Shown here: piece by piece, positions 2,068-44,914 of the stretch
Layout: each line of letters starts with the position of its first letter
Position numbering within the stretch: the first letter of the stretch is position 1
NCBI RefSeq assembly: GCF_036588685.1
Contig: NC_086375.1
Coordinates: forward strand, 75,826,001 to 75,890,000
From: Mytilus trossulus
Lineage: Eukaryota
Direction: 5' to 3'
DNA length: 64,000 nucleotides
Program-made: the position numbers and the translations under genes
The notes under the pieces: generated by a model
Database searches by the model: none
Seen by the model: only the letters and a program-made list of their open reading frames with translations
What the model was told of the DNA's origin: nothing

Positions 2068-2847
2068 TAGGCCTGTAACTAACTATAACTGACCTTGATC
2101 AGACCTATTACTAACTATAACTAACCTTGATAAGGACTATAACTAACTATAACTGACCTTGATAAGGCCTATAACTAACTATAACTGACCTAGATAAGGC
2201 CTATAACTAACTATAACTGACCTAGATAAGGCCTATAACTAACTATAACTGACCTTGATAAGGCCTGTAACTAACTATAACTGACCTTGATAAGACCTAT
2301 AACTAACTACAACTGACCTTGATAAGACCTATAACTAACTACAACTGACCTTGATAAGGACTATAACTAACTATAACTGACCTTGATAAGGCCTGTAACT
2401 AACTATAACTGACCTTGATAAGGCCTATAACTAACTATAACTGACCTAGATAAGGCCTATAACTAACTATAACTAACCTTGATAAGGACTATAACTAACT
2501 ATAACTGACCTTGATAAGGCCTGTAACTAACTATAACTGACCTTGATAAGGCCTATAACTAACTATAACTGACCTAGATAAGGACTATAACTAACTATAA
2601 CTGACCTTGATAAGGACTATAACTAACTATAACTGACCTAGATAAGGCCTGTAACTAACTATAACTAACCTTGATAAGGACTATAACTAACTATAACTGA
2701 CCTAGATAAGGCCTATAACTAACTATAACTGACCTTGATAAGGACTATAACTAACTATAACTGACCTTGATAAGGCCTGTAACTAACTATAACTAACCTT
2801 GATAAGGCCTGTAACTAACTATAACTGACCTTGATAAGGCCTGTAAC
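2068..2847. repeat. 32-bp minisatellite, about 24 copies, copy of exon 28 end + donor site
   Basis: Unit ccttgataaggcctataactaactataactga. Confidence 0.97.
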
Positions 2848-2921
2848 TTATGGCATCAGTATAAGGATTCTCAATCATGTCTTCTAAATCATCAAAGGTA
2901 TGCAGTATTTCTTCTATTACC
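2830..2921 (-). CDS. MYO16: MYO16-like exon 28 (tail)
   Basis: [31 protein letters not shown]; tttcag / AAG|gtcagt; phase fits exon 27; donor is the first unit of the 32-bp array. Confidence 0.78.
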
Positions 2922-5900
2922 CTGAAAGTATAATTCAACCTCTAAGTTAAAATAATCCAGTTTCTTCTGGTACTCTGAAATAATCCAATGTCTAAATTAG
3001 AATAATCCTATGTTTCTTTATACTTTAAAAAAAAACAAACAACCAAGGTTAAAGTTCTGCAAGTCACATTTTGCAAATTGCTGGATACATTACAAAGCTA
3101 AGTTATATTTAAATACATGAGGGTTGTCTCAAACCTAGATCTCACATTACAAAGGAAATAAAGAGGAAATTCACTTTCAATAAGTTTGTCAACTGAAGAT
3201 AATTGATTTTAACAAAAACTTCCTCAATTTTCATAATTTGGTTAATAAAATGCATTTAAAAACTCTTATCTTCTGAATTTAAACACTAAACATAAAACAA
3301 TAGAACAATGATCTTTCCTCCTTCTAAGATACATCTTATATTAAAGACTTTTTACAGCTTGGTTTACAGAATATTGTATAAAAACAACATAAAATGGTAG
3401 AAAACTATAAAGGATTAAAATTAGTTTAGGTGTTTAAGTCAGATCTGTTATTTCTATCTTTATAGACTCGGGCTGCTTGGCATAATATAAGTTATTGTGC
3501 TTTGACACAACTAACAGGATTATATAGACAGTGTTGAAAATAGTTGATCTTTGAGGATGAAACTCTAAACTCTAAACTTCTACGAATTCAATGCTTTCTA
3601 AATAAAAGAACAGAGTTACAATGTCCCCTGCCTTTCACATAATTTATCTAGACAGCAACTAACACATTGTTTGTTCTTATAAACTTTTTATGAATATCTT
3701 AGAGAAAAGAAGGCTTCAGAGTAAAAACAATTCAGGTTTACAATATAATTAATTATTCCAAGGGGCATAACTCATGAACAAAATGCTAGTTTGATATACA
3801 TGCTAGACAGTTAATTTCATAAGGAACATGTGTGCTAAGTATTAGGTTGATGTAACCAGACTACCTTAAACATAATCTTTCACCTGGTATGGGCAGATGG
3901 AATTACAAACAGACAGTAAAACACAATGCTTCTCTGCTATTGAGGAAGGGTATAAAAAGTTCAGACAAATTCAATTTTCATGATAGAAATACAAAGGATA
4001 TGGGTATCCATCCATAGCTCAAATCATAGTACCGATACATGCACAGAAAAAAATACAAATAAAAGCATAGACACTTAGCTTTTATTGCTATTCTTTATCT
4101 TAAAATTACAGAGGCCTTCAACACAGAGCAAACATGCTCTCATCTCACAGCAAGTTTAAGACAGATTTTACAAAGAGTAAGTTCTGCTCATTTCAGAATG
4201 AAGGAAGGACATAGAAATGAAATAGCATACATAGGGAGCACTATATGCTCAGTTGCCTTAGCTACCTCATGGTGGGGTTGTGAGAATGGAATAAATATAA
4301 ATAATTCCATTTAGAATTGAAAATCTTGAAAACCTGCCACGTTATTCACAAAATATATAACTACTAAATGTGATCACAGGTTATACTGATGTGTTCATGA
4401 ACAGCAAGTATTTTTATCAGTAAATTTTTCAGGGAAAAGGGGCACTGTCCAAAAACTATTAGTAAAAATTAATATGTTTTTCCTAATGAATTTTCTGATT
4501 TATTGTTACAAAACCTTTGCTGTATGAACCAATTCAATTAATCATTGAAGTGTCATATCTTAAATAATTTTATGGAGACCTTTTTCAAATCAAAACTAGG
4601 ATGGGTGGACAAACACATGCATAATTTTACAAAAAACACAAGCCTAACTATAAACAAGATTGCACACGCTGAAATGTCGCGCCTTCTTTACTAATCATTG
4701 ATTTTATGTTAATAGTCTAAGTATAAAGCTTTATTACAACTGTCACATAAAACTTAACATTAACCAAGATAACTAAATAAAGACCAATGAACCATGAGAA
4801 TGAGGTCAATGTCAGATGAACCATGCCAGGCAGACATATTAACGTTAAAGACACCCTTGTAGATTTCGAAAAAGAGTAGGCTAATGCCGCTACAAGGCAG
4901 CACTCGCACCCACAAAGTGGAAAGGGATTAATATAAGTTGCAAAACTTGTTTCCCAATCCACGATAAATAAATATGTTTAAACTATATACAGCTAACAAT
5001 GCTTCCATACAACAATTATAGTTGACCTATTACTTAGAGTTTAAGAAAAATAGACCAAATCACAAAAACTGAACACTGCATGATCAATGAACCGTGAAAA
5101 TGAGATCAAGGTCAAAGAAAACCTGTGCCACTAACATATAGATCATAAAATATTTCTATACACCAAGTATAGTTGACCTTTGGCTTATAGTATTAGATAA
5201 AGAGACCGAAACTCAAAAACGTAACTTTGACCACTGAACCATGAAAATGAGGTCAAGGTCAGATGACATCTGCCCGCTAGACATGTACACCTTACAATCA
5301 TTCCATACAACAAATATAGTAGTCCTATTGCATAAAATATGAGAATAACAGACCAAAACACAAAAAATTAACTATAACTACTGAACCATGAAAATGAGGT
5401 CAAGGTCAGATGACACCTGCCAGTTGGACATGTACACCTTACAGTCCTTCCATACACTGAATATACTAGCCCTATTGCTTATAGTATCTGAGATATGGAC
5501 TTGACCACCAAAACTTAACCTTGTTCACTGATCCATGAAATGAGGTCGAGGTCAAGTGAAAACTGTCTGACGGGCATAAGGACCTTGCAAGGTACACTCA
5601 TATCAAATATAATTATCCTATTACTTATAATAAGAGAGAATTCAACATTACAAAAAATCTGCACTCTTTATTCAAGTGATCACTGAACCATGAAAATGAA
5701 GAACATTGGACATGTGACTGATGGAAACTTTGTAACATGAGGCATCTATATACAAAGTATGAAGCATCCAGGTCTTCCACTTTCTAAATATAAAGCTTTT
5801 AAGAAGTGAGCTAACGCCGCGGCCGCCGGATCACTATCCCTAAGTCGAGCTTTCTGCAACAAAAGTTGCAGTCTCGACAAAAACTAAATATTTCAATAAA

Positions 5901-8900
5901 CCACAACTCATAAACAACCAATTTTCAATTAAACATCAGACGGCTTGGACGTTATATTGTGGAGATCCACAGTTGGAAGTGAAAATATAGAAATGTTTGA
6001 TGATATTTATTTTCAATCAAACAGAATACAAAATTGAGGTCACTGTAGTTTTGGCTCAATTTGCATTTCCACTAATTGATAAACTTTGAGATTAAGTTAC
6101 TTTTAACTCTTTGGTTCTTCAATAAGTTGAACCTCAGTTCTAATTCTTATTAATAACAACATGGAGTACAACTTACTGATTACTTGGCTCAGCTGACTTT
6201 TTAGCTCTATCTTCTGCTTGTTTTTTAGCTCTATCTTCTGCTTGCTTTTTAGAAGACTCTGCTTGCTTCTTAGTAAATTCTGCTTTCTTCTCTTTGTAAA
6301 CTTGTATTGCTTTATGTCTCCTGACAGCTGAAATAATTGTGAATGACTTTAAACATACAATTTAATAAAAGCAGAAAAATAATTTTGAAGATACAAAGAA
6401 GGAATGCAACATAATAAATCCTCCATAGAAGTCTGTTCACAGGTTATACTGATGTTTTCATGAACAGCAAGTATTTTTATCAGTAAATTTTTCAGGGAAA
6501 AGGGCCACTGTCCAAAATCTATCAGTAAAAATAATATGATATGACACATTCCCCATTTCCTTTCTCAATTTTATTCTGCTGTTATTATGTAGAATGTAAC
6601 AAATGAAAATTTGGACTGGTAAATAAAGGGTTGCAAAGATTTTTATAGATGAAAAATGATCAGTCTCTTCAAGCTGCATTTGTGTAACAGAATTATTGCG
6701 GTATGTTCAATAGTTTCTTGAGGTTGATGAGAAGGAACATACCATGAAAAGGTACACAGACTTGTTTCTGAAGATAAATATACAAGTCTCCTGCCATCTC
6801 ATTGAGTTCAACTAAAGATATTTCAAATAAATAAAAAGAGTGATATGTTTTGGTTTTTTTCTTCATGGATTTCTTTATTGGTGTATTTGTTGATATACCT
6901 GTAACTGATATCCTCTTACCTGACTGGGATATGACAAGTTTCTTTAGTATTTCATCATTGGCTTTATCAACATTACATACAACACCGTCTGTCATGAATA
7001 CTTTGGTTTTACCAATCTGAAATACAATTGCTGGTGTCATATGGCATTTTGAACCTCATGGAAAATTGACCCTGTCCTAATACATGTACTGCTATGGTAA
7101 AATCCCCCCCAAAAAACCCTTATATGGAAAATTGCCCCCCCCCCCTGGTAAATTGAACCCCTACATAATTACTAGAACATTATACATAATATTAAGGCTC
7201 ATCAATCATTGAAAATCAGACATACAAAAAGGGGAGGTAAATATTTCATGAAAGGAAAAAAATACCCTGGTTTGGTATATGTGCTCTGAACATACTGAAT
7301 GAAGACTTTACCAACAAAACTTAATTCAAAATACTTATTGAAGCATTTTGACTAAACCATGTATCTGGAATGCTTTGGTTATTTGATATCATGACTTAAA
7401 TTTACCATGGTAATAAAGGGGCAGTGGCAAAGTTATCATGACTCAGTGTAATTGTAAAAACATCTTCAAAATATGATTTTATATGTACCAAATATTAGTT
7501 AAGGTATCAAAACTTTACAAATAATTTGAAATATTTTTTTTTTTTAAATTAGAGGTGTATGGACAATGGTTATTAAATATAATTACTGTTGGTATGGGCA
7601 AGTATGAGCTAAATGAACAATAACATATCAACAGTGACCAAGTTCAATATTTTAAAACGACAGTTGAACAATATAAAAAAGGTTGTGTCACTGTTTTATT
7701 TGCAAAATAGTATCCAAACAATCATAACAAGTATGAGAATTTTCGTTAAACAGTCTTAAAAACATAGTTGACACTCGGTGAAATTGCAGTAGTAATTACA
7801 CCTTATATAAGAATGCCAGCTTTTGATTGGCTGATAGCCAGTGTATTTTTCGCATATTCTAACATATTTTCCTCATTTCAAACGGATCTGCCTTTTTTCA
7901 CCACTGCCAGTGAATATGCCTCAAATACCATGGTACATGTATTTGCCATTTTGGATATTCCTTTTTTACCCTTGCGAGCATCTTCCCGTCTTTTTTTTCG
8001 GATATGACGTTACATAAAGACAGTGCGAACACGTATACGTACCTGTATAGTTCCTGCGGTATATTTTATGACAGTACTTGTCCTCAAATAAATATTTCCT
8101 TTTCCTAGTACAGAGAGTTTAAATTAAAATTTATTCGGTGTAATTAAACAGATATATCATGTTATGGAGGGTATTTGCAAAAAATACAAGTCTTGGGACA
8201 AAATTTCCCTTGCCTAGCGGCTCGGGAAATTTATGTCCATCAACTTGTATTTTTCGCAAATACCCCTCCATAACATGATATATCTGTTCAATAGTCCCAA
8301 AAAGTCAAAATTACTTTACTTTGGTTAATTTAGTAAATGATGTAACTTATATGACCTACGTTTTTTTTTCAATCTATGTCATGCTCTGTGCTAAAACATT
8401 TACTTAACAATATCCAGAGCAGTATGTGTTGACCTTTATGTTAATCTAATCAATATTAAATCTATTGTTATCACATCTCAGTTATACATATGATAAACAA
8501 ACTCTGTCATATTACCTGATATCCATCTTTTTCACTGATCACACAGAATTTGAACATTTCTTTACATTTTTCAACGTCAGGTATCATAGAGTGGGAAGGT
8601 AAACAAGACAACATCAAAGCTTTATATCTGAAAATACAACCAGTCAGGTATCATAGGGAAGGTAAACAAGACAACATCAAAGCTTTATATCTGAAAATAC
8701 AACCAGTCAGGTATCATAGGGAAGGTAAACAAGACAACATCAAAGCTTTATATCTGAAAATACAACCAGTCAGGTATCATAGGGAAGGTAAACAAGACAA
8801 CATTAAAGCTTTATATCTGAAAATACAATCAGTCGGGTATCATAGGGAAGGTAAACAAGACAACATCAAAGCTTTATATCTGAAAATACAATCAGTCGGG

Positions 8901-11900
8901 TATCATAGGGAAGGTAAACAAGACAACATCAAAGCTTTATATCTGAAAATACAATCAGTCAGGTATCATAGGGAGGGTAAACAAGACAACATTAAAGCTT
9001 TATATCTGAAAATACAATCAGTCAGGTATCATAGGGAAGGTAAACAAGACAACATTAAAGCTTTATATCTGAAAATACAACCAGTCAGGTATCATAGGGA
9101 AGGTAAACAAGACAACATCAAAGCTTTATATCTGAAAATACAATCAGTCAGGTATCATAGGGAGGGTAAACAAGACAACATTAAAGCTTTATATCTGAAA
9201 ATACAATCAGTCAGGTATCATAGGGAAGGTAAACAAGACAACATCAATGCTTTATATCTGAAAATACAATCAGTCAGGTATCATAGGGAAGGTAAACAAG
9301 ACAACATCAATGCTTTATATCTGAAAATACAATCAGTCAGGTATCATAGGGAAGGTAAACAAGACAACATCAAAGCTTTATATCTGAAAATACAATCAGT
9401 CAGGTATCATAGGGAAGGTAAACAAGACAACATTAAAGCTTTATATCTGAAAATACAATCAGTCAGGTATCATAGGGAAGGTAAACAAGACAACATTAAA
9501 GCTTTATATCTGAAAATACAATCAGTCTGGTATCATAGGGAAGGTAAACAAGACAACATCAAAGCTTTATATCTGAAAATACAATCAGTCAGGTATCATA
9601 GGGAGGGTAAACAAGACAACATTAAAGCTTTATATCTGAAAATACAATCAGTCAGGTATCATAGGGAAGGTAAACAAGACAACATCAATGCTTTATATCT
9701 GAAAATACAATCAGTCAGGTATCATAGGGAAGGTAAACAAGACAACATCAAAGCTTTATATCTGAAAATACAATCAGTCAGGTATCATAGGGAAGGTAAA
9801 CAAGACAACATCAATGCTTTATATCTGAAAATACAATCAGTCAGGTATCATAGGGAAGGTAAACAAGACAACATCAATGCTTTATATCTGAAAATACAAT
9901 CAGTCAGGTATCATAGGGAAGGTAAACAAGACAACATCAATGCTTTATATCTGAAAATACAATCAGTCAGGTATCATTGGGAAGGTAAACAAGACAACAT
10001 CAATGCTTTATATCTGAAAATACAATCAGTCAGGTATCATAGGGAAGGTAAACAAGACAACATCAATGCTTTATATCTGAAAATACAATCAGTCAGGTAT
10101 CATAGGGAAGGTAAACAAGACAACATCAATGCTTTATATCTGAAAATACAACTTGAATTAATGGTCAAAGCAAAAAACCGAATGATTTAAATCTATCAAG
10201 TAAAGCTGATAACAGATATGTTGAATGTCATTAATTCAACATTCTCTTTCCTTCTATTATTGTAGTTTCATAATAAAACCCATTAAAAAAGAGACAAAGC
10301 AGAATGAAGATATGTATCTTTCAGGCTTGTTTTTCATGAAATGTTTTCTTATGTATTCTTTAATCTCAAGTGTTAGAAAACTTCTCTCTACATGTCATCA
10401 CTACATACCTACTGACAAAGTCATGAAACTTGATCCTGTAAGGATATCCAAACTTCTTTATTTTGATTGTCTCACTGATACCAGTATATCTCAGTTGTGC
10501 TAGAACATATTCTGGTATAAATGTCATAGCTGCCTTTGTAGTATTTGGTTTCAAACATCTAATTATATGTGGTGTAGAGGACTGGACCTTGATCATCAAT
10601 TCTGATAAGGAACACTGAAATAGATACATTAATTCTAATAAGGAACACTGAAATGGATACATTAATTCTGATAAGGAACACTGAAATAGATACATTAATT
10701 CTAATAAGGAACACTGAAATGGATACATTAATTATGATAAGGAAGACTGAAATAGAGACATTAATTCTGATAAGGAACACTGAAATGGATACATTAATTC
10801 TGATAAGGAACACTGAAATAGATACATTAATTCTAATAAGGAACACTGAAATAGATACATTAATTCTAATAAGGAACACTGAAATGGATACATTAATTAT
10901 GATAAGGAACACTGAAATAGATACATTAATTCTGATAAGGAACACTGAAATAAAGACATTAATTCTGATAAGGAACACTGAAATAGATACATTAATTCTA
11001 ATAAGGAACACTGAAATGGATACATTAATTCTGATAAGGAACACTGAAATAGATACATTAATTCTGATAAGGAACACTGAAATTGATGCATTTAATTTTA
11101 AGGAACACTGAAATAGATACATTAATTCTAATAAGGAACACTGACATGGATACATTAATTCTGATAAGGAACACTGAAATAAAGACATCAATTCTGATAA
11201 GGAACACTGAAATGGATTCATTAATTTTGATAAGGAACACTGAAATGGAGACATTAATTCTGATAAGGAACACTGAAATAGATACATTAATTCTGATAAG
11301 GAACACTGAAATAAAGACATTAATTCTGAGAAGGAACACTGAAATGGATACATTAATTCTGATAAGGAACACTGAAATAGATACATTAATTCTAATAAGG
11401 AACACTGAAATGGATACATTAATTCTGATAAGGAACACTGAAATAGATACATTAATTCTAATAAGGAACACTGAAATGGATACATTAATTCTGATAAGGA
11501 ACACTGAAATAGAGACATTAATTCTGATAAGGAACACTGAAATGGATACATTAATTCTGATAAGGAACACTGAAATAGATACATTAATTCTAATAAGGAA
11601 CACTGAAATAGATACATTAATTCTAATAAGGAACACTGAAATGGATACATTAATTATGATAAGGAACACTGAAATAGATACATTAATTCTGATAAGGAAC
11701 ACTGAAATAAAGACATTAATTCTGATAAGGAACACTGAAATAGATACATTAATTCTAATAAGGAACACTGAAATGGATACATTAATTCTGATAAGGAACA
11801 CTGAAATAGATACATTAATTCTGATAAGGAACACTGAAATTGATGCATTTAATTTTAAGGAACACTGAAATAGATACATTAATTCTAATAAGGAACACTG

Positions 11901-14900
11901 ACATGGATACATTAATTCTGATAAGGAACACTGAAATAAAGACATCAATTCTGATAAGGAACACTGAAATGGATTCATTAATTTTGATAAGGAACACTGA
12001 AATGGAGACATTAATTCTGATAAGGAACACTGAAATAGATACATTAATTCTGATAAGGAACACTGAAATAAAGACATTAATTCTGAGAAGGAACACTGAA
12101 ATGGATACATTAATTCTGATAAGGAACACTGAAATAGATACATTAATTCTAATAAGGAACACTGAAATGGATACATTAATTCTGATAAGGAACACTGAAA
12201 TAGATACATTAATTCTGATAAGGAACACTGAAATTGATACATTTAATTCTGATAAGGAACACTGAAATAGACATTAATTCTCATAAGGAACACTGAAATA
12301 GAGACATTAATTCTGATAAGGAACACTGAAATAGAGACATTAATTCTGATAAGGAACACTGAAATAGAGACATTAATTCTGATAAGGTACATTGAATTAG
12401 ATACATTAACTTGGGGTCTCATTGGGGGGGTTCTGATCCCAGATCCCGCTCACTGTTTTCTTAGATTCCCGTATCCCACTTACACTATGTACATAAGCAA
12501 TTCTCAATTTTTTTGTCATTTCCCAGGTCCCGCAAGACCTCATTTCCCGTTTTCACGACACAATAATTTGACTTTCACGTTTCCCTCTTACGAAAAATTG
12601 GCAATCACGCGTCACGCTTAAACCCCAATGAGACCCACTTAACTAACATAGCTGTTGGTTTGATGTCTAACTGACATTAAAGTTGCAAAGGTCTTGAACT
12701 GAAAAACTCAAAAAAACTAAAAACCTAGTGGCTTAAAAGAGCCTGAGTTGATCACTTGAATCAATGTTCATCTTAATCATTATAGCCACTCTCCATCATT
12801 GCTTTTCAAAGTTCCCCAAAAATTATAGCGTTTATGATAAAAGTCAATAACGCAAATCATGGTAATAATTGTTATTTAAGAGCAATAACTCTTTATAGTT
12901 GACTGTTGATTGAAGTCATGTGGACTTATTTACTGATAAATTTTGCTATTTTCTAAATTTATAACTATCAATTATAGTATTCTTGATAATAGGCAAAAAA
13001 ATATAAAAATCGGGAAAATCTTTATTTCACAACCAGAGTAAGTAGATCTCAACATTCCCAACATTTCTGTTTCAGACAGATTTTCTCCGGTTACAGTGAT
13101 TTTCAAGATAATAGACAAAGTGCATTGTACTCCTGTTTTAATCTCAGCCATATCAGCCATGTTCTTTTATGGTAGAAAGTTGTCTATAATATGATTTTAA
13201 TATGTGTATTTTAATGTAATACCAAAATGCTATATAATAATGACATTTGTAACATACCCTAAAATGGTAAGCCATTGTGGCTGGTCCTTTCCTCTCTGAA
13301 GCGGTCATTGGTTTGGCAGGCTGTTTTGTCTGAAAAAAATAATTAAATACTTATCTATAAAAGAATGGGAAAAAATAATATGACAAAACTCACATGATTT
13401 ACTACTAAGCCTACAGTAGAGGATACTTTAACTTGAAATACCTCTCTTGTAATATTTTTTGTATATTGCAGGTTTCTTGGTATTAGAGATGTATACATTA
13501 TTGTTTATCTTTATATAGAGTATTGAAGTATTCAAGTCATAGTAACCTATATTTTGTGAGATGCTAATTCTCCCTAGACATTTCTGTACAATACGTTATA
13601 TGATTACATGACACCTAATAACTGAGATATAAACTAAGATATAAACTAAGTTAAAAAGCAATATTGCTAATAAGTTTAAAAAGACTTAAAAAAAATGATG
13701 GTTATGTGGCCATCTTGATCTTATGGAAGTTTCTCAACACAAATTAGTATTAAAAGTAGGTCATATACAGTTTTGGAGCACACACAGACAGGAATGCTAA
13801 GAATATCAAGACAATCCCTTCTGTTTACTAGTTTTGTTATCTTGCCTACCTTGTCTGCCTTTCCACCTCTCAGTTTCTTAAAGAACTCAAATGGAGATTT
13901 AGATGTATTTCTCCTGGATCTTTGTTGTCTGGCACTGGGGGCTAATGAACCTGTTCTTGTTATATTTGACTGAAACAAATCCTTTATCAACAGACTGTTA
14001 CTCGCTGAAAATATGGTAAAACATTAACTTATCACTTATATAGTAGCCTAACATTATTTCTAACTTGTAAGGACAACTAAAGGATAACATACAGTTTACC
14101 CTTTTCACTGAACTAGTACACATTCTTATTCAAGAGCCAGCTGAGGCCCACCTCTGGGTGTGGTATTTGGTCCAAGGACACAGTTATCGTCCTTTGGTTT
14201 TCGTTGTCTACGAATATAGTCCCTAGTGTAAACAGTGTATAACTTGCATGTTTTATTTGATACACTTTCCAAATTTATTTCTTGATATTAAATGCATGAA
14301 ATATTAAGTAGGGGGATGTAATTACATGTCAAAAAACTTTTGGTGCTGAATCTTTATGTTAAGTAGTGAATTGGTCCAGTTCTAAGAGGTCAAATTTTAT
14401 CACGTCTGACTCTGTCAAACTGAATTTTACACCCCCTTAACACAGAATTGTCAATATTTTGAGTTAGAGCTGGTAGAAGTTTCTATAATTTTGATAACAT
14501 TTGTCTCACTGGTAGTACACTACACTGTAAAAATCTTTTTGAGAAAGAGCAGGTGTGATTTTTTTAATTTGAATTTATTGTCTTGAATTTAATGTCTAAA
14601 AGAAGTGCACTACGAAATAACTGTGTTCTCGGGCCATTTTCTCAATGGATTAAAGATCCATCGGTGGCCTTCAGTTATTTTCTGCTCTTTGGTAGCATTG
14701 TTGTCTATCTGACATCTTCCCCTTTTCCATTCTCAATTTTATTCAACTGTGGACAAAAGTCTGTGCAGTATTCCAATCATCAAATGTGGAGTCAAAAAAA
14801 GTTATTTACTATATATAATCAACAACTTTTCAATCCAATAAACAATTTATTTTTTTATTACAAATTTAATTTATTACGCTATCAGATTTTACTTTATGAT

Positions 14901-17900
14901 ATGGTACAAAAATCAACCAAAACAATGGCCCCAGATGACTTTTAAAATGTGTATATCATTGATAAAGCTCCAAATTATCTCCCTTTGGTGCAAAAAAGCC
15001 ATTTTTTTGCATCAAAATTGAAATATCTTTTTTCTCATCGGTGACCTAAGTTTTTTTATTATTATTTTCAAATAAGCTGTACTTCCACTTATTCTTTCAG
15101 CTAACAAAGTAGCTTTGATATTCAAATTTTTTAAAGTGAATTTCACAGTTACTTACTTTTCATAGTATACATAATGGAGTTAGGCAGTGTATCTCTATTT
15201 TTATCCAGTGTTCCAAGTAGATTATAAGTCACTGCTCCAGCAAAATGGACAACTGTAAATGTTCCACCACCATCTTTTGGTGACTTATATACATGTGAGA
15301 ATTTCTTTCCTGGAAAAAAAAATATTATAATTTGTGAATTGTTTCAGTTAGCTTCAAACTGTGGAAATATTATTATAAATCATCAGCAGGAATAAAATAC
15401 ATAAGTTGGAAGATTTTGGACGTTCTGATTTATTAACTGTAGCCTTTCAATACTAATGCAAGATTTATCAAAATGGACAAGAAATGTCTTATAAATTAGT
15501 ATGAAATATTTAAGATAACTGATACCTGGTCCTTGATGTAATTTAGCAGCTAATGACAGATCTGTTGCTTTAGGAAATCTACTTTCTTCATCTAGTACTG
15601 CAAATACTCCAGTGTGTTTCTAAAATAAACAGTATTTGTATATTAAAAACAAGAATGTGTCCAAAGTAAACGGATGCCCCACCCCCACTTTCACTTTCTA
15701 TGTTCAGTGGGCCATAAAAGTGGGATAAAAAATTTAATTTGGCATTAGATTAGAAAGATCATGCCATAGGGAACATGTGTACTAAATTTCAAGTTGATTG
15801 GACTTCAACTTCATCAAAAACTACCTTGACCAAAAACTTTAACCTGAAACTCTCACTTTCATTTTCTATGTTCAGTGGACCGTGAAATTGGGGTCAAAAG
15901 TTTAACTTGGCTGTTAAATTAGAAAGATCATATCATAAGGATCATGTATACTAAGTTTCAAGTTGATTGGACTTCAGCTTCATCAAAAACTACCTTGACC
16001 AAAAAATTTAACCTGAAGCGGGACAGACGGACGAACCGTACGACGGAAGAATGAAAGGACAGATGGACGAACGGTACGACAGACGAACGGACGAACGAAC
16101 AGATGCACAGACCAGAAAACATAATGCCCCTCTTTTATCGTAGGTGGGGCATAATAACATGACCTTTAGGAGAGTCTTCCACCTATCATTTTATAAAGCA
16201 ATAAAATTTGGTCTTGCAGCTTCTTTGAAGGAACTTACGGACAATCAGGTGTACAGAAGGACAAGTGTTACACTTAATGCCCACTCTGAATGAGCTGCAG
16301 CTCAAATTTTTTTAAAGAGTGGAACTTTTTGAATATTTAGTGAAAATGTTTATCTCAAATTAAATATCAAAGTCATCTTTCAACTAAAGGGACTTCAACT
16401 TTTTGATACTGAAAAAATATGTAGTATTTGAAAATAAAGAAAGGTGTTCCTTAAGAATTTACCATTAACTTTTTAGGTAGCTTGGGGTCTAAATTTCTAA
16501 ATTAAAATCCATAGAATATTTTACTTATTCATCAAAAGGTTGTTTATATCATGCTTTTTTCAAAAATATAATAAATAGTATGGGGTCACCAGGCTTACAT
16601 TGATTCCCACTACAGGTTGTGCAAAATTGTAGAATTTTGTTTTAGATAATGCATTGAAAACAGAATTTTGAGATAAAATATGAGAAGATAGCTCTTATTA
16701 TGTGCTTTAAGATTAGAAAAAGAAAATATGGGGTCGCAGAAATAATAGAATTCAAATTTTCTTGCTATAAAATAAAATTGGTTAATTTACAACACATTTT
16801 ATTGCAAAAGTTACTTTACCTGCATTATCTCCCCTTACATTTGAGTTGTCTCTACTTATGTGGAAAAGTTGAAAAAAAAATAATTAAACAAAATTTTTCA
16901 AATACATCCATAAATATGATAAAACATCTTATGAATCACATTCTACTCTCGAAATTTGCACATTTTATTAAAGATCTAGACCGATTGTTATCTGGTATTT
17001 CAAAATCCAAGATAGAGAAAGACACCTCCGTGCAAGGGCTGTATAGCCAGTCAAGATAATTAAAAACTCCCATCATCATCAGACGCTTTAATTCTTGAAA
17101 ATATTAATAATCTCTTCAATTCTGATGGTTTTGCAAGTTACCTCCATAAAGGTATCCAGGATAGACTGATTATTTTTGTAAGTTAAATCCACCAATTTAA
17201 TGCCTTCTAACAAACAGTCCTGTTGTTCTTTGTTAAATAGATGCTCATTGGTAAAATTCTGCATCTGCTCATTAGCCAAGTTGATACAAATCTTAAAAAT
17301 AAAATGAACTTTGAAAAGATGTACATAATATTGTATAATTTAAAAGATAGCAGACAATCAAATGTTTTTAAATTGTGTTACATTTTGCCATCACTTAGCT
17401 TATTATAGCTACAATATAATACAGTTTTGCTCATTGCAGAGAGACATATGGTACCCTGTACAATTGTTCACATCTTTGTCCTTTGGGTTTTGATGTATAG
17501 TTGTGTCATTGGTAATATATCCAGCATCTCTTTGTTTTTATATAATTTACCCAAAGTAAAACTCCTCAAATCATCAAAACAATTTTGTGTGTTAATATTT
17601 AGTAATCTAGCATCATGTTATTTCACTCCTATATATATGTAATCTTTCAAGCTGTAATATCATCCAAAATCATTGAAATATGATAAAAGACAAAACCAAG
17701 TCAACAGATTTGAACAGTAAGGTAAAATTATGTTCCTTCTTTGTTCAAGAATAATAAGCAATTGAAATATGTCTGTTATCTACATATTAAAGTATCTCCA
17801 AGTTTGGCAACTGGATGATTATTTATGAAACCTAAACTTTATCTTTGATGTCAAGTGTGAATTTCACACATAGACTTTTGTAGAGTTAAAAGTAAACTTG

Positions 17901-20900
17901 TAAATCTTTCTCATTAATTCTAAAGAAAACTATTTACCTGCTCAAAGCTATTCACTTTGAAATTTTCAAAGCCAAATATATCCAATATACCAACATTATA
18001 CTGTTCAATTCTAGAAAAAAAAATATCATTCAGTATTCCAAAGTACAATATACTAAATTATTTGGGTATCTTGATAGTTTTTTAAAACCTTCCTATTATA
18101 TATCTAACCCTACAGCAGCTTATAAGTTTAATGAGATGTTCCATTCCATTAATTAATAATTAAGTAAAAATTTTAATCAACTTATATATGATTATCTATC
18201 AGATGGAGGTTGTTATAAAGGGACATAACTCTACCCATAAAAAAAAATGAGATGTTTAAAGGCTTCTTATGATTAAAATTGTAATACTTGACAAAATATT
18301 TTATCTCATAATCGAGTTTTATTATATATTCTATTTATGAACTTTCTTTACTTGCCTACATATTTTTGTGAGCATCTCTAAACTGTCTTATTTATCTTAC
18401 AATCCCTCATTTTCTCATTTGAATTGGAAATTGAGGTTGTCTTTCATTTTCCAATGCTTAAGAATAGAGGTTTTAATAGTGATAAAATATTCAATAGTTG
18501 TACCTGTAATATGTTGGTTCAACTAGTTGGTTTATGCCATTAACAATCCAACTAAACAATCGGCTATAAATAGCTTTGGCGAGAGCATCTCGACAGTCAG
18601 AAGCTTGTTGTACAGTTCGGTCTTTTTTTATCTGTTCACCTACAACATGCAAACCACATGCACACATGCAAAACAAAAATAAATAAAAACAGATTTAGTA
18701 AGCCTCTGTTAATTGCTACTTCTTTTTCAGATGAAAACGAAATTTAATAATTCAAACAAATAAATTTTTATTTATTAAGTCTACAATATCTATTCCAAAC
18801 ATAAAAACAAAAATCCCAAATCAGAATATAATATATTGGTAACAAACAACAACTGATTAATACAAAAATAGCATGCATCTAAAAATAAAATCTCAAACCA
18901 AGGACAAGCCATAACAATAACAACAACAAAACAAAAAAAATATTTATGATTAAGGGGGCTAGCGGGTCTAAATCAATTTTTTTATTTAATATAGGATGTC
19001 GCTATATTTTTCTATAAATGAACTTTATCTTATACTTAATAGAAAAATTAAATTAAAAAATGGGGTCATTGTTCATTTACGCTCACAATGTGCCATCGAA
19101 AAAAGCATACGTTTTTGTTAATGTCCCTTTTTTCTGTTGAACTAATAGGAGAAATAGAGGTAATATCAAAATAAAAAAAGAACTAAATTACAGAAATCGC
19201 TTAAATTGTGCAATTATTTAGTTTATGTACAGCTTATTCGAAAACAACAATAAAAAATATAGGTCACCGATGAGTTAAAAAAGATATTTCAATTTTAATG
19301 CCCCAAAATGACATTTTTGCACCAAAGGGAGATAATTTGGAGCTTTTTCAATGATATCTACATGTTAAAAGTCACCTGGGGCCAACACGAATTTATTTTT
19401 TGGAAAGATTTTTGTACCATATGATAAAGTAACAACTATTTAAGGTAATAAATAAAATTTGAAATAAAAAATAAATGTTTAATTTTTTTCTAAAATTTTT
19501 ATACCCGCGAGCCTCCTTAAGCACACTTTTTGTAAGTTTATATTCTTTGTTGCAGTGTAAAAATATCCTACACAAGGTTATTTTTTCTGTGACTGTAAAT
19601 GACATTTTTATACTATAAAATTCATTATAAGTTGGATGCTTACTGATTAATATTTTAGTCCTAGATACACGAGATTTTTTATTAATTGTTACCGGTATTG
19701 GTTTTGAAATAGATTTCAGTACTCTCAGTCATCCATTCTGTGAGATTCGGAACAGGAGTAACAAATGAAAGTACTATCTCCTCTAAAGAATAAAACCCTC
19801 AAAACTGTCCCCCTTTTAAGTTTTTGTCTGATCATCAAATTAGTCCCAAGTTTTTAAGGTAAGATAATATTTGTACAAATTTGCAGAAAATGACACAAAA
19901 AAATAAATTTATAAGCATATAATGCTTCAAAACAAATAAAATCATAAAAAAGTAAACTCTTCATATAAAGTAAATATATTTGTAAATAACTGCAAAATAC
20001 AGATTCAGTCTTTGCATTCAAATGGATTTTTTAACATTTACATACCTCTTGTTGTTGTATACTCTGCTACTAAGGCAGAACTGAGTTCCTCTGGTGATAC
20101 ATCAAGCATGGAGGACACTATAATTATAAAATTGTCATTTATTATCACATATCCCTAAAAATCAAAGTCAAACTAGTCACTAAAGACAAAAGTATAAAAG
20201 TATAAAGTTATATTTCCAAACCATAACAATGGATTAGCTAGATCAGAACTTCACAAGTTAAATAAAGGTCTGAAGCATGGTGATAATAGATATAAGAAAT
20301 TATAACAATATGAGGGCATACACCACAAGCATGGGAACACATTCTACTGCATCCACACAGCACAAGCAACAAACTGCAATAAATAGATTTAAGAAATTAA
20401 AAAATATAACCATAAGTCCCTTTAAATATCTATCAATGTATTTTGATTCGTTTTAAAATTTCCAATTACATAAAAATGATTGATAGCAATTTCCTTAATA
20501 CTCTTGAGTTTTATGAGCATGTCACAAATTTGAAATGTAAAACAATATGCAAAATTATAGAAATTGGCAGGTCTGCAAAGGTATCTCTTTCTACACAATC
20601 AGAAAGTAGACCAAGAAATGCAAAACTAGCTTTATTTTAAAATGTACATCAAATTCCATAAAGCTGACCAATAATGGCTTGTGTAAGATTTCGTCTCATT
20701 CCTAAAATTGCTGAAGTAGATGCATGCTTTTATGATATATTTCATTTCATATAAAAAAAAATATTGCAAAATAAATACTTCTCAAAATTAAAATTGTCGT
20801 TTATTTTCTTATAAAATATTATTATAATCCATTTATTTGCAAGATGAAAGTAAGATTAAACTATGTAAATTATACTGTTGAATTAAAAGTATTAACTAAA

Positions 20901-23900
20901 TTTACATTACCTTCTTCAATTTTGTTTTCATTTGCAATAGTAGCAGCATCTGTTTTACTGTGGGGAAAGAAGGTAATATCACCTATATGGATTACTGCAG
21001 CCAAGGTCAGCAGTAAATTCTGAATATCCTATATAAAGAAATAAGAAAAGGTGGCAATAATTCAAATCTTTAATGAATCACAAATAGTTTTAAAAGAAAC
21101 AACACAATATATAAATTATATAAATGTACTGTAAATTCAGAAATTATTGTGTGCATTTATTATTGCAATTTTGTCATTTCAGAATAAAATGCGATTTTAA
21201 TGTTTGCCATATTCAGTTGAAACACTTTGACTATGAAATGTCAACATCAGAATCAATAAAATTTGTATCCAATATGAAAAGGATATTAATAATAATATCT
21301 TGACTTACAATTATTTGATGAAATATTTGTTTTTTTGCAATACATTGATACTCTGCTTACTCTTTAGTTTTCTATGTTGTGTCATGTGTTCTATTGTTTG
21401 TCTGTTTGCCTATTTCATTTTTAGCCATGGTGTTGTCAGTTTATTTTTCGATTTATGAGTTTGACTGTCCCTCTAGTACTTTTCGGCCCTCTTTTCACGC
21501 AAACTTTCAGCATTTTATTGAAAAATCCTATGCAAATCAAGTATGAAAAAAAAATCAATTGAGGAAAGGATTAAGGAATTTGGTGAAATAAAATGTTTCA
21601 AACACTAGAAAATCTTCAAAAATTCTACAAATGTGAGTTTACAGAGTAAGATGAACATTTTGCATACAAATCTTAATAATAACTTTTTTCTTTCTGTGTA
21701 TTCAAATACTGTAAATTCAGAAATTATTGCGTGCATTTATTATTGCGATTTTACACTTGAATGCGATTTTAATTTTTACGATTTTGAGAAAAGTCATGCT
21801 GAATTCAGTTAAAATATCGCAAAATGCGAGTTTTAATTATTGCGTTTACAACTCAGTCGCATTATTCGCAATAATAAAAACCTCGCAATAATTTCTGAAT
21901 TTACAGTATTCAAATGCAACACCAGACTTATAATTGTAATTTTACTAAAAATGTTACCAAACATAGGCTTTTCCTCATCAAACTTACATCTGCAGAAAAT
22001 CCAATAAAGCCAAGACATTTTTTCAGGTCCCAGAATTTCTCTTTATTTTCTTTATTTTGTAGTTGTGTCATTTCAACTCTACTTCTTACATATCTGTAAA
22101 ATAAAACTTTGTTCATTACTTCTTCAACTTTTAATAAATAATCATACAAGAGTGCACACTATACATTTATTTCCCGTGCCTGAGGGAGATATGAAGATTT
22201 GTTCACCCAAGAATATTCATATTTCACGAGGGCTCTGCCCGAGGGAAATGTGATTTTTTGGGGGTGAACAAATCTTCATATCTCCGGAGGCCAAGGGAGA
22301 TGATTGTTTTATTCCACTGCCTAAGCTTTGTATACTATCTGAACTTCAAATATTAGTTTGCATACCGACATTTTTCAGACTTATATTGGCTTGTTTTTAT
22401 TACTGAACACAACATACGTATTGATAAACAGTACAGATAAACATTGATTATTTAATTAGTCTTTTTGTTTTAACGTTTGAAATAACTTTGAACACGATAA
22501 TGATATTTGCTATTGCTATTTAGAAAATAAGAAGTTCAAGACGTTATGTACATAAACCGCGCATAACGTCGCACGAATTAGTCCCAACATGTCAGAGGGG
22601 AATATGATACTCAGAGGTGAATATGAAGTTTTGTTCGACGTCACGTGTCAAAGTTTCAACCAATCAAATGTTGATTTCGCTATCAAAATCAACATGCAGT
22701 GGAATAAACTGAAATGTCTCACCTTCTATACCATTGATAGAATGTTGTCAGTCCTAAATATAAAGCTTTATTTCAACAATATATTTTTTAATTTTTTTTA
22801 AATTCATAAAAAAGAACTAAGTTGTTTATTCATGATATTACCGGTACATATATATTTCTATAAAAATGACATTAATCTAACTAGAGGCTCCAAAGAGCCT
22901 GTGTCGCTCACCTTGGTCTATGTGAATATTAAACAAAGGAAGCAGATGGATTCATGACAAAATTGTGTTTTGGTGATGGTGATGTGTTTGTAAATCTTAC
23001 TTTACTAAACAGTCTTGCTGCTAACATTTATCTCTATCTATAATGAACTTGGCCCAGTAGTTTCAGTGGAAAATGTTAATAAAAATTTACAAATTTTATG
23101 AAAATTGTTAAAAATTGACTTTAAAGGACAATAACTCCTTAGGGGGTCAATTGACCATTTCGGTCATGTTGACTTAATTGTAAATCTTACTTTGCTAAAC
23201 ATAATTGCTGTTTACAGTTTATCTCTTTCTATAATAATATTCAAGATAATAACCAAAAACAGCAAAATTTCCTTAAAATTACCTTAAAAGGGGCAGCAAC
23301 CCAACAATGGGTTGTCAGATTTATCTGAAAATTATAGGGCAGATAGATCTTTATCTGATAAACAATTTTACCCAATGTCGGATTTGCTCTAAATGCTTTG
23401 GTTTTTGAGTTATAAGCCAAAAACTGCATTTTACCCCTATGTTCTATTTTTAGCTGTGGCGGCCATCTTGATTTGATAGTCGGGTCAACGGACACATTTT
23501 TAAAACTAGATACCCCAAAGATGATTGTTGCCAAGTCTGGATTAATTTGGCCTAGTAGTTTCATAGGAGAAGATTTTTGTAAAAGATAATTAAGATTTAC
23601 GAAAAATGGTTAAAAATTGACTATAAGGGCAATAACTCCTAAAGGGGTCAACTGACCATTTCGGTCATGTTGACTTATTTGTAAATCCTACTTTGCTAAA
23701 CATTATTGCTGTTTACAGTTTATCTCTATCTATAATAATATTCAAGATAATAACCATAAAACAGCAAGATTTCCTTTAAATTACCAATTCAGGGGCAGCA
23801 ACCCAACAAAGAGTTGTCTAATTCGTATGGAAATTTCAGGGCAGATAGATCTTGATCTGATAAACAATTGACCCCATGTCAAATTAGCTCTAAATGCTTT

Positions 23901-26900
23901 AATTTTTGTGTTATAAGCCAAAAACAGTATTTTACCCCTATGTTCTATTTTTGGCTATGGCGGCCATTTTGTTTGGTGGACCGGGTCACCGGACACATTT
24001 TTTGAACTAGATACCCCAATAACAATTGTGGCCAAGTTTGATTGAATTTGGCCCAGTAGTTTCAGAGGAGAAGATTTTTGTAAAAGATTACTTTAATTTA
24101 AGAAAATGGTTAAAAATTGACTATAAAGGACAATAACTCCTTAACGGGTCAACTGGCCATTTCAGACATGATGACATATTTGTATATCTAACTTTGCTGA
24201 ACATTATTGCTGTTTACAGTTTATCTCTATCTATAATAATATTCAAGATAATAACCAAAAACTGCAAAATTTCCACAAAATTACCAATTCAGGGGCAGCA
24301 ACCCAACAACAGGTTGACCGATTCATCTGAAAATTTCAGAGCAGATAGATCTTGACCTGATAAACATTTTTATCCCATGTCAGATTTCCTCTAAATCCTT
24401 TGGTTTTTGAGTTATAAGCCAAAAACTGCATTTTACCCCTATGTTCTATTTTTAGCCATGGTGGCCATCTTGGTTGGTTGACCGGGTCACGCCACACATT
24501 TTTTAAACTAGATACCCCAATGATGATAGTGGCCAAGTTTGGTTCAATTTGGCCCAGTAGTTTCAGAGGAGAAGATTTTTGTAAAAGTTAACAACGACGA
24601 CGGACGACGGACGCCGGACGACGGACGATGACGGACGCCGGACGCAAAGTGATGGGAAAAGCTCACTTGGCCCTTCGGGCCAGGTGAGCTAAAAATGAGA
24701 GCTTTTGTACCACATAAAATAATGTTTAAACAGATATTCCCTATACTCTGACCTTCACATCTAAGACAAGCAACTTTACCTATGAGCATTAACAGACTGC
24801 AGATGGAATAAATTAAATTCTTCTGGTGTTAGTCCAGAAAACATCCAATAAAATATGTGAAAGTTTCTTTCTCCTTCATTCTGGTAGACAACACGAGACT
24901 TCTCCAACAAAAACTCTGTTAATTTGGCTACAGAAGAAAGATATCATAAACATACAAGTCATTCATAAGTATGTATTTTTGTAACATGTTCTGTTTGATC
25001 TCATTTCATTTATACAGATACCAAACACATAACTTTTATTCATTTTGTGGAATTTTGTGTAAATTATTTTTTTCTATTGAAAAATAAGAAATCCCTTGTT
25101 CTAATTTTACACATTCAATTGCAAATCATTTAAAAACAAGAATGTGTCCAAAGTACATGGATGCCCCACTGGCACTATCATTTTCCATGTTCCATGGACC
25201 GTGAAGTGGGGTCAAAAGTCTAATTTGGCTTTAAAATTAGAAATATCATATCATAACAATCAAGTGTACTAAGTTTCAAGTTGATTGGACTTCAGCTTCA
25301 TCAAAAACTACCTTGACCAAAAACTTTAACCTGAAAATCCCACTTTCATTTTATTTGTTCGGTTGACCATGAAATTGGAGTCAAAAGTCTAATTTGGCTT
25401 TAAAATTAGATATATCATATCATAAGCAACAAGTGTACTAAGTTTCAAGTTGATTGGACTTCATCTTCATCAAAAACTACCTTGCCCAAAAACTTTAGCC
25501 TGCGGACGAACAAATGGACGAACGAACAGACGAACGAGCAGACGGACGAACGAATGAACGGAGCCACAGACCAGAAAACATAATGCCCCTCTACTATCAT
25601 AGGTGGGGCATAATTACAATACAATATACAGGCCCGTAGCCAGGAATTTCCAAAGGGGGGTTCGTTGGACTCACAAACTCGACTTTAACAGTCACAATTC
25701 GAACAGAACATTGCCTTTAACAGTCCTTATTTGTTTTCAAGGGGGGGGGTTCATCCGAACCCCCCTGGCTACGGGTATGATATAGTCCTCAATATATACA
25801 ATTTAAAGTAGGCCTCAACTGTAAATGCATGAAAGCATAAAGGAACAACAAAAAAAAGCATATTTTAACTACTAGCTGGTATACTTATTTAGTTACTGGT
25901 ATAAGAGCATAGAAAATGTAACTAATATATAACTAGATATAAGAAGATGCAGTATGAGTGCCAATGAGACAACTCTCCAACCAAGTAAAAGTAAACCATA
26001 ATATTACAAAATACGGTCTTCTACACGGAGCCAACTGTCCAATAAGCTGTCAAATATCTCTACAGAATTCTTACCTCCAACTAATTTTCCCTGCTGACTA
26101 AACATTAATTCAATAAATTTAGCAAAGCGACTAGAATTATCATTTATCATCGTCTGTGCATTCCCAAAAGCTTCTAACAAAGGATTCACCTAAAAACATC
26201 AAGATCATATCTAAATTATGCATGCAGTCATTTGTGACCAATATTTAATCAACAAACTGTATTATCCTGCTATTCAAATATATTATAAGTTACATTCAGA
26301 AATGTTTATGTGCATTTATTATTACAATTGTTCAACAATAGACACAAAATGTGAAAATATATTGTTGAATATCTGGAAATACTGTGGATTCATTATTATT
26401 TGTTTGGATACTAACAGTAGATTATATGTGTGTGTAGGGTCACCATGAATTTAAATGTTCAAAGAATTGCAAATTTTCTATGGGAATGTATGCAAACATT
26501 TTAAGAACCACAAAATCAATATCCACGAAAATAGAAGTTTTCGTAGATCAAATAGTTCTATGAACAGCTACCTCATTGCCAGTAACTATAGATTGTATAA
26601 TTACCTGATTAATTTTGTTATTCAAGTTACCCTCTTCACTGCCAGTTACCCTAGCCAGATGTTGGACCAATAGTTTACATGTTTCAGACTTTCCTGCTCC
26701 ACTTTCACCACTGATGACACAGCACTGGGAGGTTTTATCATTCCTCATTGAACCATATGCCTCCTCAGCTGTGCAATAAAGATGAGGAGGTAGGGAGGTT
26801 AAATCTCCTGTCATGTGATACAAAGTAGAAACCTACAATAGAAAGGAGTTGAATGTTTGATTAATAGTTGCTAAACAACCAGCAGCAAATATCCATTTTT

Positions 26901-29900
26901 AATTTTAAATGTTGGTATTTAATCCACATGAAGAAATAAAATTCTACCTAGACACAGCATCATCACTCCATTCCAACCAATCTTTGTTCTTACCATTGAA
27001 TGTCTAGCACTATGAGAAACATCTGATACCAATTATTTAGAAGCCTTTGGTTTGATTCTGTTTGTGATTGAACACATGACCTCAAATAATCCTATTTGAC
27101 GTGAAAATATATGGTCTTCTATTCTTCCCATTATAAAAACTATTGCAATACTGGGTCAATACAGAGTTATTGGTCTTGTTTATGTCTTGTGACCTTGACA
27201 TTGCCTGTTAAAACATATAGTGTTTTTGAGTGTTCCCTTGATATCTTTTTTCTAAGAAAACTGCTGTTTTAAAATTTCCAAACTTTTAGTAACATTATTT
27301 TACAAGGATGTTTCCGCTGTGCTACACATACAAGTACTGAAGCACAACTCCGGGTCTGGTATTATCTCGCTGCATTGGTGGCCTTCAGCTGTTATTTGCT
27401 CTTTGGTCGGGTTGTTGTCTCTTTGACAAATTCCCCATTTCTATTATTTTACAGATGAAGAAAAATGTTGACCGATGACAAATAAATATATCAATAAATT
27501 GTATTTACATAAAAATGTATTACTTGATTGATTCATTGGTGTTTAATGCCACTGTTAACTTTATTTTGCTTTATGGTTACTTAGTGGAGTAAGCAGGAGT
27601 GCGAGGAGAGGAAAACTGTTAATTAGCACTCCTGCAATGTGGGGATTCAAACTCAAAATGGGCTCAGTATTGTCAGGCTAGTGATAGCTGACAACTTAGA
27701 CCACACAGCCACTGAGATCCCTATATTTTTAAAATAGAGACTGTGAACCTTTATTTCTGGTACCATGAACTTATATATATGGTACCTGTTTGGCATATAT
27801 TGATAGTTCTTTGAATGGATTAACAGCAAGCAGTACATCACCAATCTTTGTCTGAAATAACATTGTAAATTCTTTACTGATTATGATAACATCTTCTCAT
27901 CATTATTTCAAATGAAGACAAAACAAAAGAAATCTACATCAACAAAGATTGCCATGTCCCATAATTGATTCCAGGTTTTGGTGGGGTTTGTGTTTCTCAT
28001 TCTTTAGTTTTCTATGTTGTGTCATGTATGCAATTTTTTATCTGTTTGTCTTTTTCTTTTTTAGCCATGGCATTGTCAGTTTATTTTCAATCTATTAGTT
28101 TGACTGTCCCTCTGATATCTTTTGCCCCTCTTTTACACAGCACTTTTTAATTCTTTCATTTAACTTGATATACCTGGACATCTTGATTCTACCTTCAGAG
28201 CTTCTATTTATATACTTACATATATCTGGTCATCTTTATATCTGTTTTCAATGTGTGACAGTACACTTTCTTCCGATATATCACTTAAATTCTTTAAATT
28301 ATCTGTGTCTCTTACTTTTGGTAGCTGAATCTAATATAATTGATTTACATCTATTAGTTACATATTGTGAAAATGTACATATAATAATCAACTTTTCTGT
28401 TCTTTACTATTTACAGTTTTTGCTTAAGAGTAATAAAATTTCTATTTTTATATGTGAAGTTACACATACAAGATCATACCAGAAGTTATCTTGTTATATA
28501 AGTGTCTCATAAGTCAAATTTATGACTGGGTATTGATTGTTTTATTGTATACTGTGATTTGTAAATATTGTCAATCAATATGTGACACTATAATAAAATA
28601 TATATTTATTTGTTATAATTGAACTACAATAAGATCAGTGCTGTTACACAAAACTATGTTAGTCTGATAGTTTAGTCATTTAATAGGATTGACAAGTAAG
28701 AGGAGAATTTCATATTAAAACTCCATTTTTATCTTTAAATCTGCAATTTATTGTGATTGATTTAAACCTGAATTGTATTGTATCAGTATACCTATACTCT
28801 AATTCGTTTTAATAATAACAATAATGCATCTAGCAAGCAACACAAGAAAACAATCTAAAGACATACATACTTGAGTATAACAGCTGTAAAGATATATTTA
28901 ACCAAATTTTCATTTTATTTGTGCATGTTTCAAAGACATTTGAAGTATGGGAACTTTTTCTTAATGTATGTAGAATTAGTGGTGAAGATGGCTATGTCCT
29001 AGTTAATTTAGTGATGTCTAAGGAAAGAACAGGGAAAATGTGCAAACTTTCCAAAAATGAAAACTTAATGCTGTTGTATTTTCAACATTTAAACAAAACC
29101 AATACTGGAATGAAAAGGCAGAGACATGCTGAGATAATCTTTCTATATTATGCATTTGACAAGTAATATACTGAATAGCAGCACAAAATTGAATAATTTT
29201 TGTGTCATTCATTTTTTAACACTTGATAAAGCATATAAGATGAAAACGACAAAAAGTAGCTATGCATGAAAAAACAAAGTGGACAATAATAATCATCAAA
29301 TGAAATGTTTTAAGGGGAGGTAAAAAATGTGTTCAAGAATGTAGTAAACCCTGTATGTGAGTAAATTTCAAAATCTTAAGATGTGTATTTGTTGAGAAAC
29401 AAATGACATTTAATTTAAGGCACTAGGCACCAAAACATGAAAATCAATAAATTTTCTGCAGCAATCCCTAAAGTGTTGTTGTAATAAGACTTTTTACAAA
29501 ATTTTATATTTGCATTGGCATAGAAGCTTTAATCTCTAAGGGTTCAGATTTAATGATAGAATACAACCAGATGCTCCGCAAGGCGTAGCTTTATACGACC
29601 GCAGAGGTTGAACCCTGAACGGTTGGGGCAAGTATGGACACAACATTCAAGCTGGATTCAGCTCTAACTTTGGATTGTGATTAAATAGTTGACACAGCAT
29701 AGGTTTCTGACACAGAATAAATGTGTTCTAATGAACTTAAAATTTTTGTTTTCTCTTAGAGCAATTCACTATGCTGTTGAATATTAATCCTCTCAAAAAA
29801 ATGTTTGAAGAAATTTTCTTTTTATTTATGAAATTTCAAATGAGAAAAATTGAACCCAATTTTTTAATCACATCCCCCTTTCCCTTATTCTAAAACTAAT

Positions 29901-44395: not shown

Positions 44396-44914
44396 TTCCT
44401 TGAGCTTCAATTCACTTTTTCGACCATTCACTGAAAAAGAAAAACACTGGTCTAAACACAAATACAAAAAGAACAAAAGAACAGAGTTACAGGGTATCCT
44501 GTTTTGACACATATTATATCTGTCCACTTGAACATGTCCAAGGTCAATAAACTTTGAAAACTTTTTGTATGTTTCCTAAATAAAGGAAGACTTGGGAGGA
44601 CTTACACTACAATGCAAACTTTCCATAAAATTGATATTTCAAAGTGGCTAACTGTCTAGAAAACAGTTGATAATTTTTAAGAAATGTACGCTAGGGAGAA
44701 CATTGTCCTCAGTTTGATTTTCTAACTTGTTCAAGACAATGCTGATAATTATCAATTTCTTCAAATCTGGTAAATATTACGCATCTATAGGAGTACACTT
44801 AATACAATGCAGTTTCCAAAGAAATAATATTTTCTATTGGGTATTAAAAAAAAATCTTTGATTGGAATGTATTTTTGAATTTATTGTTTACAAAAAATGG
44901 TTTCAGGTTTAATT

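Follow-up and report, generated by a model that had tools for sequence, protein, structure and literature searches.

A mirage minisatellite of decoy splice acceptors in a myosin-XVI-like gene of Mytilus trossulus

The DNA analysed here (64,000 nt, referred to as the window) was taken from Mytilus trossulus contig NC_086375.1 (positions 75,826,001 to 75,890,000, forward strand) and carries a myosin-XVI-like gene on its minus strand. One intron of this gene is largely occupied by a 63-bp tandem array, which is a mirage minisatellite: its head-to-tail unit spans the intron-exon boundary, and 24 decoy acceptors precede the single acceptor that leaves the reading frame open. The array is regarded, with a probability of about 0.7, as a tolerated by-product of repeat instability, the acceptor being chosen mostly at the level of splicing. 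The correct junction was found in two of four RNA-type sequencing runs and the decoy junction in none of them (contigs only, from animals whose arrays may differ from that of the window). The features on which the argument depends are as follows (coordinates are those of the window).

8628..10151, minus strand: 63-bp minisatellite of 24 units, with 24 decoy acceptors at 10139-63k, every one followed by an in-frame TGA
8516..8627, minus strand: true coding exon (112 nt), with donor GTAATA at 8515
8628..8650, minus strand: context of the productive acceptor, supplied by unit 24, with the exon-derived candidate branch motif CTGAC
10140..10408, minus strand: unique intron sequence; TTGAC (-26) and TTAAT (-19), ahead of decoy 1, are candidate ancestral branch motifs
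10409..10614, minus strand: upstream coding exon, matching the myosin motor domain (PF00063, E 8.9e-18), with donor GTATGT at 10408
2830..44430, minus strand: ankyrin-repeat and motor-domain myosin-XVI-like gene, 28 coding exons by tblastn

Anatomy of the array

On the minus strand, 25 acceptors of the form TTTCAG/ATATAAAGC (the slash marks the splice site) were mapped from 10139 to 8627 at a spacing of exactly 63 nt, and each of the 24 upstream units is exactly 63 nt long. Tandem Repeats Finder (TRF) gave 24.7 copies with 97% identity at 8593-10151. The unit consists of 48 nt from the start of the exon (positions 1-35 and 40-52, without ACTC) followed by 15 nt, TG(A/G)TTGTATTTTCAG. The splice signals are kept: TTGTATTTTCAG ends 24/24 units, and the decoys score at least as high as the true site on a position weight matrix (PWM). 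The array accounts for 1524 nt (86%) of the 1781-nt intron, in keeping with a first-pass annotation of this DNA, made from the sequence alone, which had described the intron as nearly all array.

Splicing to donor 10409 was scripted for every acceptor. Acceptors 1-24 led to a stop at codon 82 and acceptor 25 (8627) to an open frame, which bears out the claim of the same annotation that all 24 upstream copies are poison and the last alone is coding. The stop, for which TCC CTA TGA had been given, reads so in 23 units, and unit 3 has TCC CAA TGA instead. It lies at unit positions 39-41, the shortest decoy exon measures 175 nt, and in all decoy products the stop is found >55 nt upstream of the next junction, as the position rule (>50-55 nt) for alternative splicing coupled to nonsense-mediated decay (AS-NMD; NMD for the decay itself) demands. 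A stop-free frame of 556 aa on the plus strand (8520-10190) is attributed to the 63-nt period, of which it would be a by-product.

Among the units, 9 sequence types can be told apart, which follow a polar order along the array; the GCA allele is commoner at the far end (rho -0.68, calculated on units that are not independent), and no trend with position was obtained for the distance of the units from the exon sequence (rho -0.25, p 0.25). The homogeneity of the units (9 types, 97% identity) represents the concerted evolution within a cluster that characterises mirages.

Junctions in RNA-type contigs

Contigs from 4 of 24 listed runs (X1, X5, X6 and X7; RNA nature guessed, no listed run being on record as RNA and all having small shares) were compared with positions 10077-10660. 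This comparison stretch (584 nt) holds one 63-bp unit (unit 1) and about one decoy of a neighbouring 33-bp array. A joint from 10409 is reported as leading to 10139, since the stretch holds unit 1 alone; exon and decoy are told apart by ACTC.

In X1 (3628-nt contig, depth 16.3) and X6 (depth 5.1), which come from two studies of one organism, 10409 was joined to the unit start with the 4-nt insert. The loose ends of both contigs matched exon-unique sequence with one mismatch each, and the true exon is thus used. The loose end of X1 differs from the window near 8570 by one base, which would give Ile for Met, as in the Mytilus coruscus protein. X7, from a run with a different organism code, makes the 10409 joint and ends at the last base common to exon and decoy; it was not counted, since a branch, a single-nucleotide polymorphism (SNP) and an end of coverage are indistinguishable there. 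In X5, a 93-nt contig without the insert closes on itself at a distance of 63; it contains no junction, and it places the decoy unit in an independent sample. A donor-to-decoy junction (a unit without ACTC) was found in 0/4 contig sets, a form of data that drops rare forms, and no transcript skipping 8516-8627 was found in these four sets. Contig cover of 10140-10408 was zero in 4/4 runs, which is no evidence beyond the joints that cross this part.

Two of the four RNA-type runs connect donor 10409 with the ACTC copy and extend into the exon, so that the 4 nt cannot be put down to an assembly error. Across the 10409/8627 junction the M. coruscus protein likewise needs the ACTC copy and cannot be obtained from the decoy reading; in the scallop and oyster orthologs the corresponding place reads HSMI. 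The 4-nt difference reported in the first-pass annotation is therefore real, and neither of the two outcomes named there as contrary (skipping of the 112-nt exon; an assembly error behind the 4 nt) was seen.

Further boundary arrays of the gene

The 63-bp array is not a sole case; three more boundary arrays were found in the same gene.

10615..12409, minus strand: second acceptor mirage, with a 33-bp unit; 54 acceptors were found, counting the real one at 10614
34158..37590, minus strand: donor mirage, with units of 41/43 bp; the boundary 20-mer is present in 77 extra copies
2069..2829, minus strand: donor mirage, 32-bp unit, 23 extra copies; donor inferred from homology, downstream exon outside the map

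Among 56 mapped boundaries (a few of them approximate), 4 had 23-77 extra copies of the 20-mer, 1 had a single stray match and 51 had none; exon centres were repeated in 0/28 cases. The four boundary arrays are all the arrays of at least 20 copies in the mapped gene span, and the crude chance of all four long arrays touching a boundary is 1e-4 to 1e-3. In the 41/43-bp donor array, 62/62 decoy donors tested lead to a stop.

The 33-bp array has a higher-order repeat of about 23 units. Its decoys are poison in 50/53 cases, and the nearest three are in frame and open in the window haplotype. X1, X6 and X7 all enter the upstream exon at 10614, the last acceptor of this array, and X1 also has a contig of the 33-bp repeat and so carries the array. 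Because open decoys that NMD could not hide are not seen in these junction contigs, choice at the splicing step is favoured over NMD alone, the scope of this internal control being that the arrays of the X1, X6 and X7 animals may differ from that of the window.

Origin of the array and choice of the acceptor

The array would have started when 65 nt were duplicated through a GTTG common to both sides (exon ...CCTGAC/GTTG; end of the unique intron ...AA/GTTG TATTTTCAG). The founder would have lost ACTC and gained TG (65 to 63 nt), and slippage or unequal exchange would then have multiplied the resulting unit. Because every unit carries the same 4-nt loss, the 24 stops represent one founder event and not 24 events. 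The strangeness implied in the first-pass annotation is accordingly overstated: the arrangement is that of a described class, the mirages, and an all-poison array follows from one founder unit. Decoy 1, the first acceptor, would retain the old intron context. Its stop is in frame, as that annotation had said of the acceptor with unique intron upstream, and the site is most simply taken for the ancestral acceptor context. Whenever an acceptor boundary is duplicated in tandem, the coding copy has to come last.

During splicing, U1 on the 8515 donor would favour the closest upstream acceptor, with a branch point at the exon-derived CTGAC or at another A in unit 24, and NMD would remove occasional slips to the decoys. 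Counted from the start of the productive exon, the A of CTGAC is at -17, where the motif had already been noticed (about 17 nt upstream of the acceptor). Acceptor strength was ruled out as the selector, since the true site is no stronger on a PWM built from 26 acceptors of the host gene, and no RNA structure marking the last acceptor was detected (z = +1.21). As neither strength nor structure nor exon size selects, the choice would fall to proximity to the 8515 donor or to exon-unique signals, with NMD as a backup. We infer that the exon-adjacent acceptor is selected and that NMD clears the errors; the mechanism of choice is most likely ordinary, and the decoy stops would be incidental, with no regulatory design.

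Several points weigh against this account. Acceptors 23, 24 and 25 have identical 20 nt upstream, and the true acceptor scores 7.8 against 7.8-9.3 for the decoys (small PWM). Splicing to decoys 24 and 23 would yield exons of 175 and 238 nt, which are inside the range of exon lengths in the gene (66-270 nt). Human data show a weak preference or none for the downstream acceptor: as excerpted from PMC9225289, the exon-definition class only reduces the preference for upstream 3' splice sites, although the abstract states that long introns favour the sites nearest across the exon; designed tandem acceptors showed no order preference in the excerpted part of PMC6783452. Proximity alone may be insufficient for near-exclusive use. 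Exon definition from the donor of the exon, as proposed in the first-pass annotation, is hence plausible, but insufficient on the published human numbers and with decoy exons of normal size. The data are contigs, which drop rare variants and give no isoform ratio; the 63-bp array is not established in X1, X6 and X7, and X5, which carries it, has no junction. A purely passive array, finally, does not explain why the variation among the units is silent only.

Silent variation among units

The exon-derived 48 nt of the units contain 5 variable sites (exon positions 10, 13, 31, 40 and 49) with 6 alleles (GCA, TTA, CCC, TCA and CCA/CCC), 6/6 of which are synonymous in the frame of the true exon; in the other two frames 1/6 and 0/6 are silent. 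A random change would be silent in 21.5% of cases, and 6/6 is expected by chance at ~1e-4, or at 5e-4 to 6e-3 once the allele adjacent to the deletion is dropped; restricted to the three sites that precede the deletion, p is 0.011. In the other three boundary arrays, silent alleles number 1/10, 1/6 and 3/13 (total 5/29; Fisher p 3e-4). The pattern was picked out post hoc, and in one array out of four. For 3/6 of the silent alleles, which are found at the decoy stop or beyond it, a decoy peptide offers no explanation.

The junction pieces of X1, X6 and X7 differ from unit 1 at two letters each, and the window exon differs from it at one. The start of the exon is thus polymorphic, and all three runs differ from the window exon in the same short stretch. 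It is conceivable, if somewhat doubtful, that array and coding exon keep exchanging sequence, the decoys being an ordered archive of silent exon alleles under a borrowed coding constraint. The exon start would seed new units, and contraction or conversion would return unit sequence to the exon. Such exchange would explain both the 6/6 silent alleles and the differing exon start in the mRNA contigs of the three runs. A description of unit variants silent in the exon frame was not found for mirages in the literature searched.

Alternative explanations

The nearest decoys might be used often and their products filtered by NMD, the last copy alone being seen at steady state; as a side effect, the length of the array would tune myosin output. 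Decoys 23 and 24 share the upstream context of the true acceptor and give exons of normal size, every decoy product has its stop >55 nt upstream of the next junction, and the excerpted human data predict real competition between acceptors (PMC6783452, PMC9225289). The decoy-unit loop of X5, at depth 3 against an exon depth of 2.5, also fits frequent use, but it has no donor junction, and pre-mRNA or DNA at ~0.1-0.4x over 24 copies would give that depth. The open in-frame decoys of the 33-bp array, moreover, are absent from the junction contigs of X1, X6 and X7, and frequent decoy use is considered unlikely.

Still less probable is a selected and regulated poison-acceptor element that tunes the gene down in some tissues or conditions. 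That 24/24 decoys stop, that the unit length is a multiple of 3 and that the unit variation is non-random relative to the exon frame would suit such an element. However, one shared lesion accounts for every stop, three more arrays in different phase stand at other boundaries of the same gene, the decoy junction is absent from all four runs, and half of the silent alleles (3/6, at or after the decoy stop) lie beyond any constraint on a decoy peptide. An assembly artefact, either of the array or of the 4-nt difference, is very improbable: the copy number is taken from the assembled window, but the independent run X5 has the head-to-tail 63-nt loop without insert, two other runs have the exon with insert, and the units are of 9 sequence types in polar order. 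A tolerated by-product of repeat instability, with the acceptor chosen mostly during splicing, is thus the explanation preferred here.

Host gene and neighbouring features

The host gene was mapped by tblastn with a Mytilus coruscus protein, which gave 27 pieces of >55% identity (most 75-100%) and, with one further exon, a total of 28; some exon ends are approximate, and the 3' part is outside the map. The upstream exon matches Pfam Myosin_head, and the homologs of the gene are bivalve 'unconventional myosin-XVI-like' proteins.

The M. coruscus gene model stops at YRPYEG, the place of the 32-bp donor array in the window, and opens with ~865 unrelated residues; annotation run-on at both ends is probable. 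In the myosin-XVI-like protein of Ylistrum balloti, as annotated, two peptides are repeated: CHLSEAKDK where the ortholog of exon 8516-8627 ends, and DDCIPAPYPEEVF close to the end of the ortholog of exon 2830-2921. Both repeats are absent from three other scallops, and 1/30 scanned proteins had repeats at these places. Judged from the protein sequence, they may be boundary duplications that were read into the gene model.

A 47-bp array lies on the plus strand at 44907-47102. Its unit is acceptor-like (pyrimidine tract and ACAG), and many units have GTAAGA 11 nt later; after the last acceptor-like copy (~47035) comes a possible exon of 67 nt, with GTAGGT at its end. A plus-strand frame at 56452-56766 matches homocysteine S-methyltransferase (PF02574, E 2.5e-10) and marks a neighbouring gene.

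Significance

Mirage repeats are extended to a mussel, and one gene can carry four of them. With 25 near-identical acceptors at fixed spacing, the 63-bp array is a natural test bed for the choice of 3' splice sites, and the neighbouring 33-bp array, whose nearest decoys are in frame, provides a built-in control for NMD; the clean use of the last acceptor is not predicted by human data. Should the silent-only pattern hold up, the alleles of a coding exon can be both recorded in and supplied by intronic repeats. Boundary-spanning arrays can also mislead gene annotation. No mollusc mirage was found in the literature searched, where coverage of subscription journals is thin and absence from print is not established; two metagenome scans for orthologous DNA gave 0 matches.

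Comparison with known systems

Regulated poison exons and acceptors (AS-NMD) act by alternative use that inserts a premature stop upstream of later junctions. Use of a mussel decoy would likewise place a premature stop upstream of later junctions; unlike in those systems, none of the alternative use was seen in the four contig sets, which drop rare forms, and the element is a young homogenised repeat.

In human CBS, the allele 844ins68 (c.844_845ins68) duplicates the junction of intron 7 with exon 8, and the distal copy is strongly favoured (PMC2630376, in excerpt). The mussel array resembles it in that, in the informative contigs, the distal copy is used and the defective upstream copy spliced out; CBS 844ins68 has two copies and is a single insertion allele, whereas the array has 25 acceptors and is of the variable number tandem repeat (VNTR) type. 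The 37-bp VNTR in intron 7 of human F7 has an end unit that spans the exon boundary, and its identical pseudo-sites are silent (PMC1557585, in excerpt). There, too, the exon-adjacent site is used, but on the donor side, where 'first site wins'; on the acceptor side of the mussel array the last site wins.

The closest likeness in class is to the mirages of amphioxus, described in the excerpted text as minisatellite-like duplications of intron-exon boundaries in globins and Adh3 that occur at both exon ends and are unstable in length (PMC3087553). Globins with mirages include BflGb6 and BflGb9 (PMC3087553, PMC3902484), troponin C and PGBD5 provide further cases (PMC3902484), and the repeats do not interfere with splicing according to the same excerpts (PMC3087553, PMC3902484). 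The mussel arrays share with them the tandem boundary copies at acceptor and donor ends, the kept splice signals, the homogenised units and, as far as the contigs show, an apparently normal mRNA, and the 63-bp unit is within the range of 10-72 bp quoted for amphioxus Adh3. They differ from the amphioxus mirages, as far as the excerpts describe these, in their mytilid host, in the presence of four arrays of 24-80 copies in one gene, in the 4-nt loss that all units share and that makes the stop, and in unit variants that are silent in the frame of the exon.

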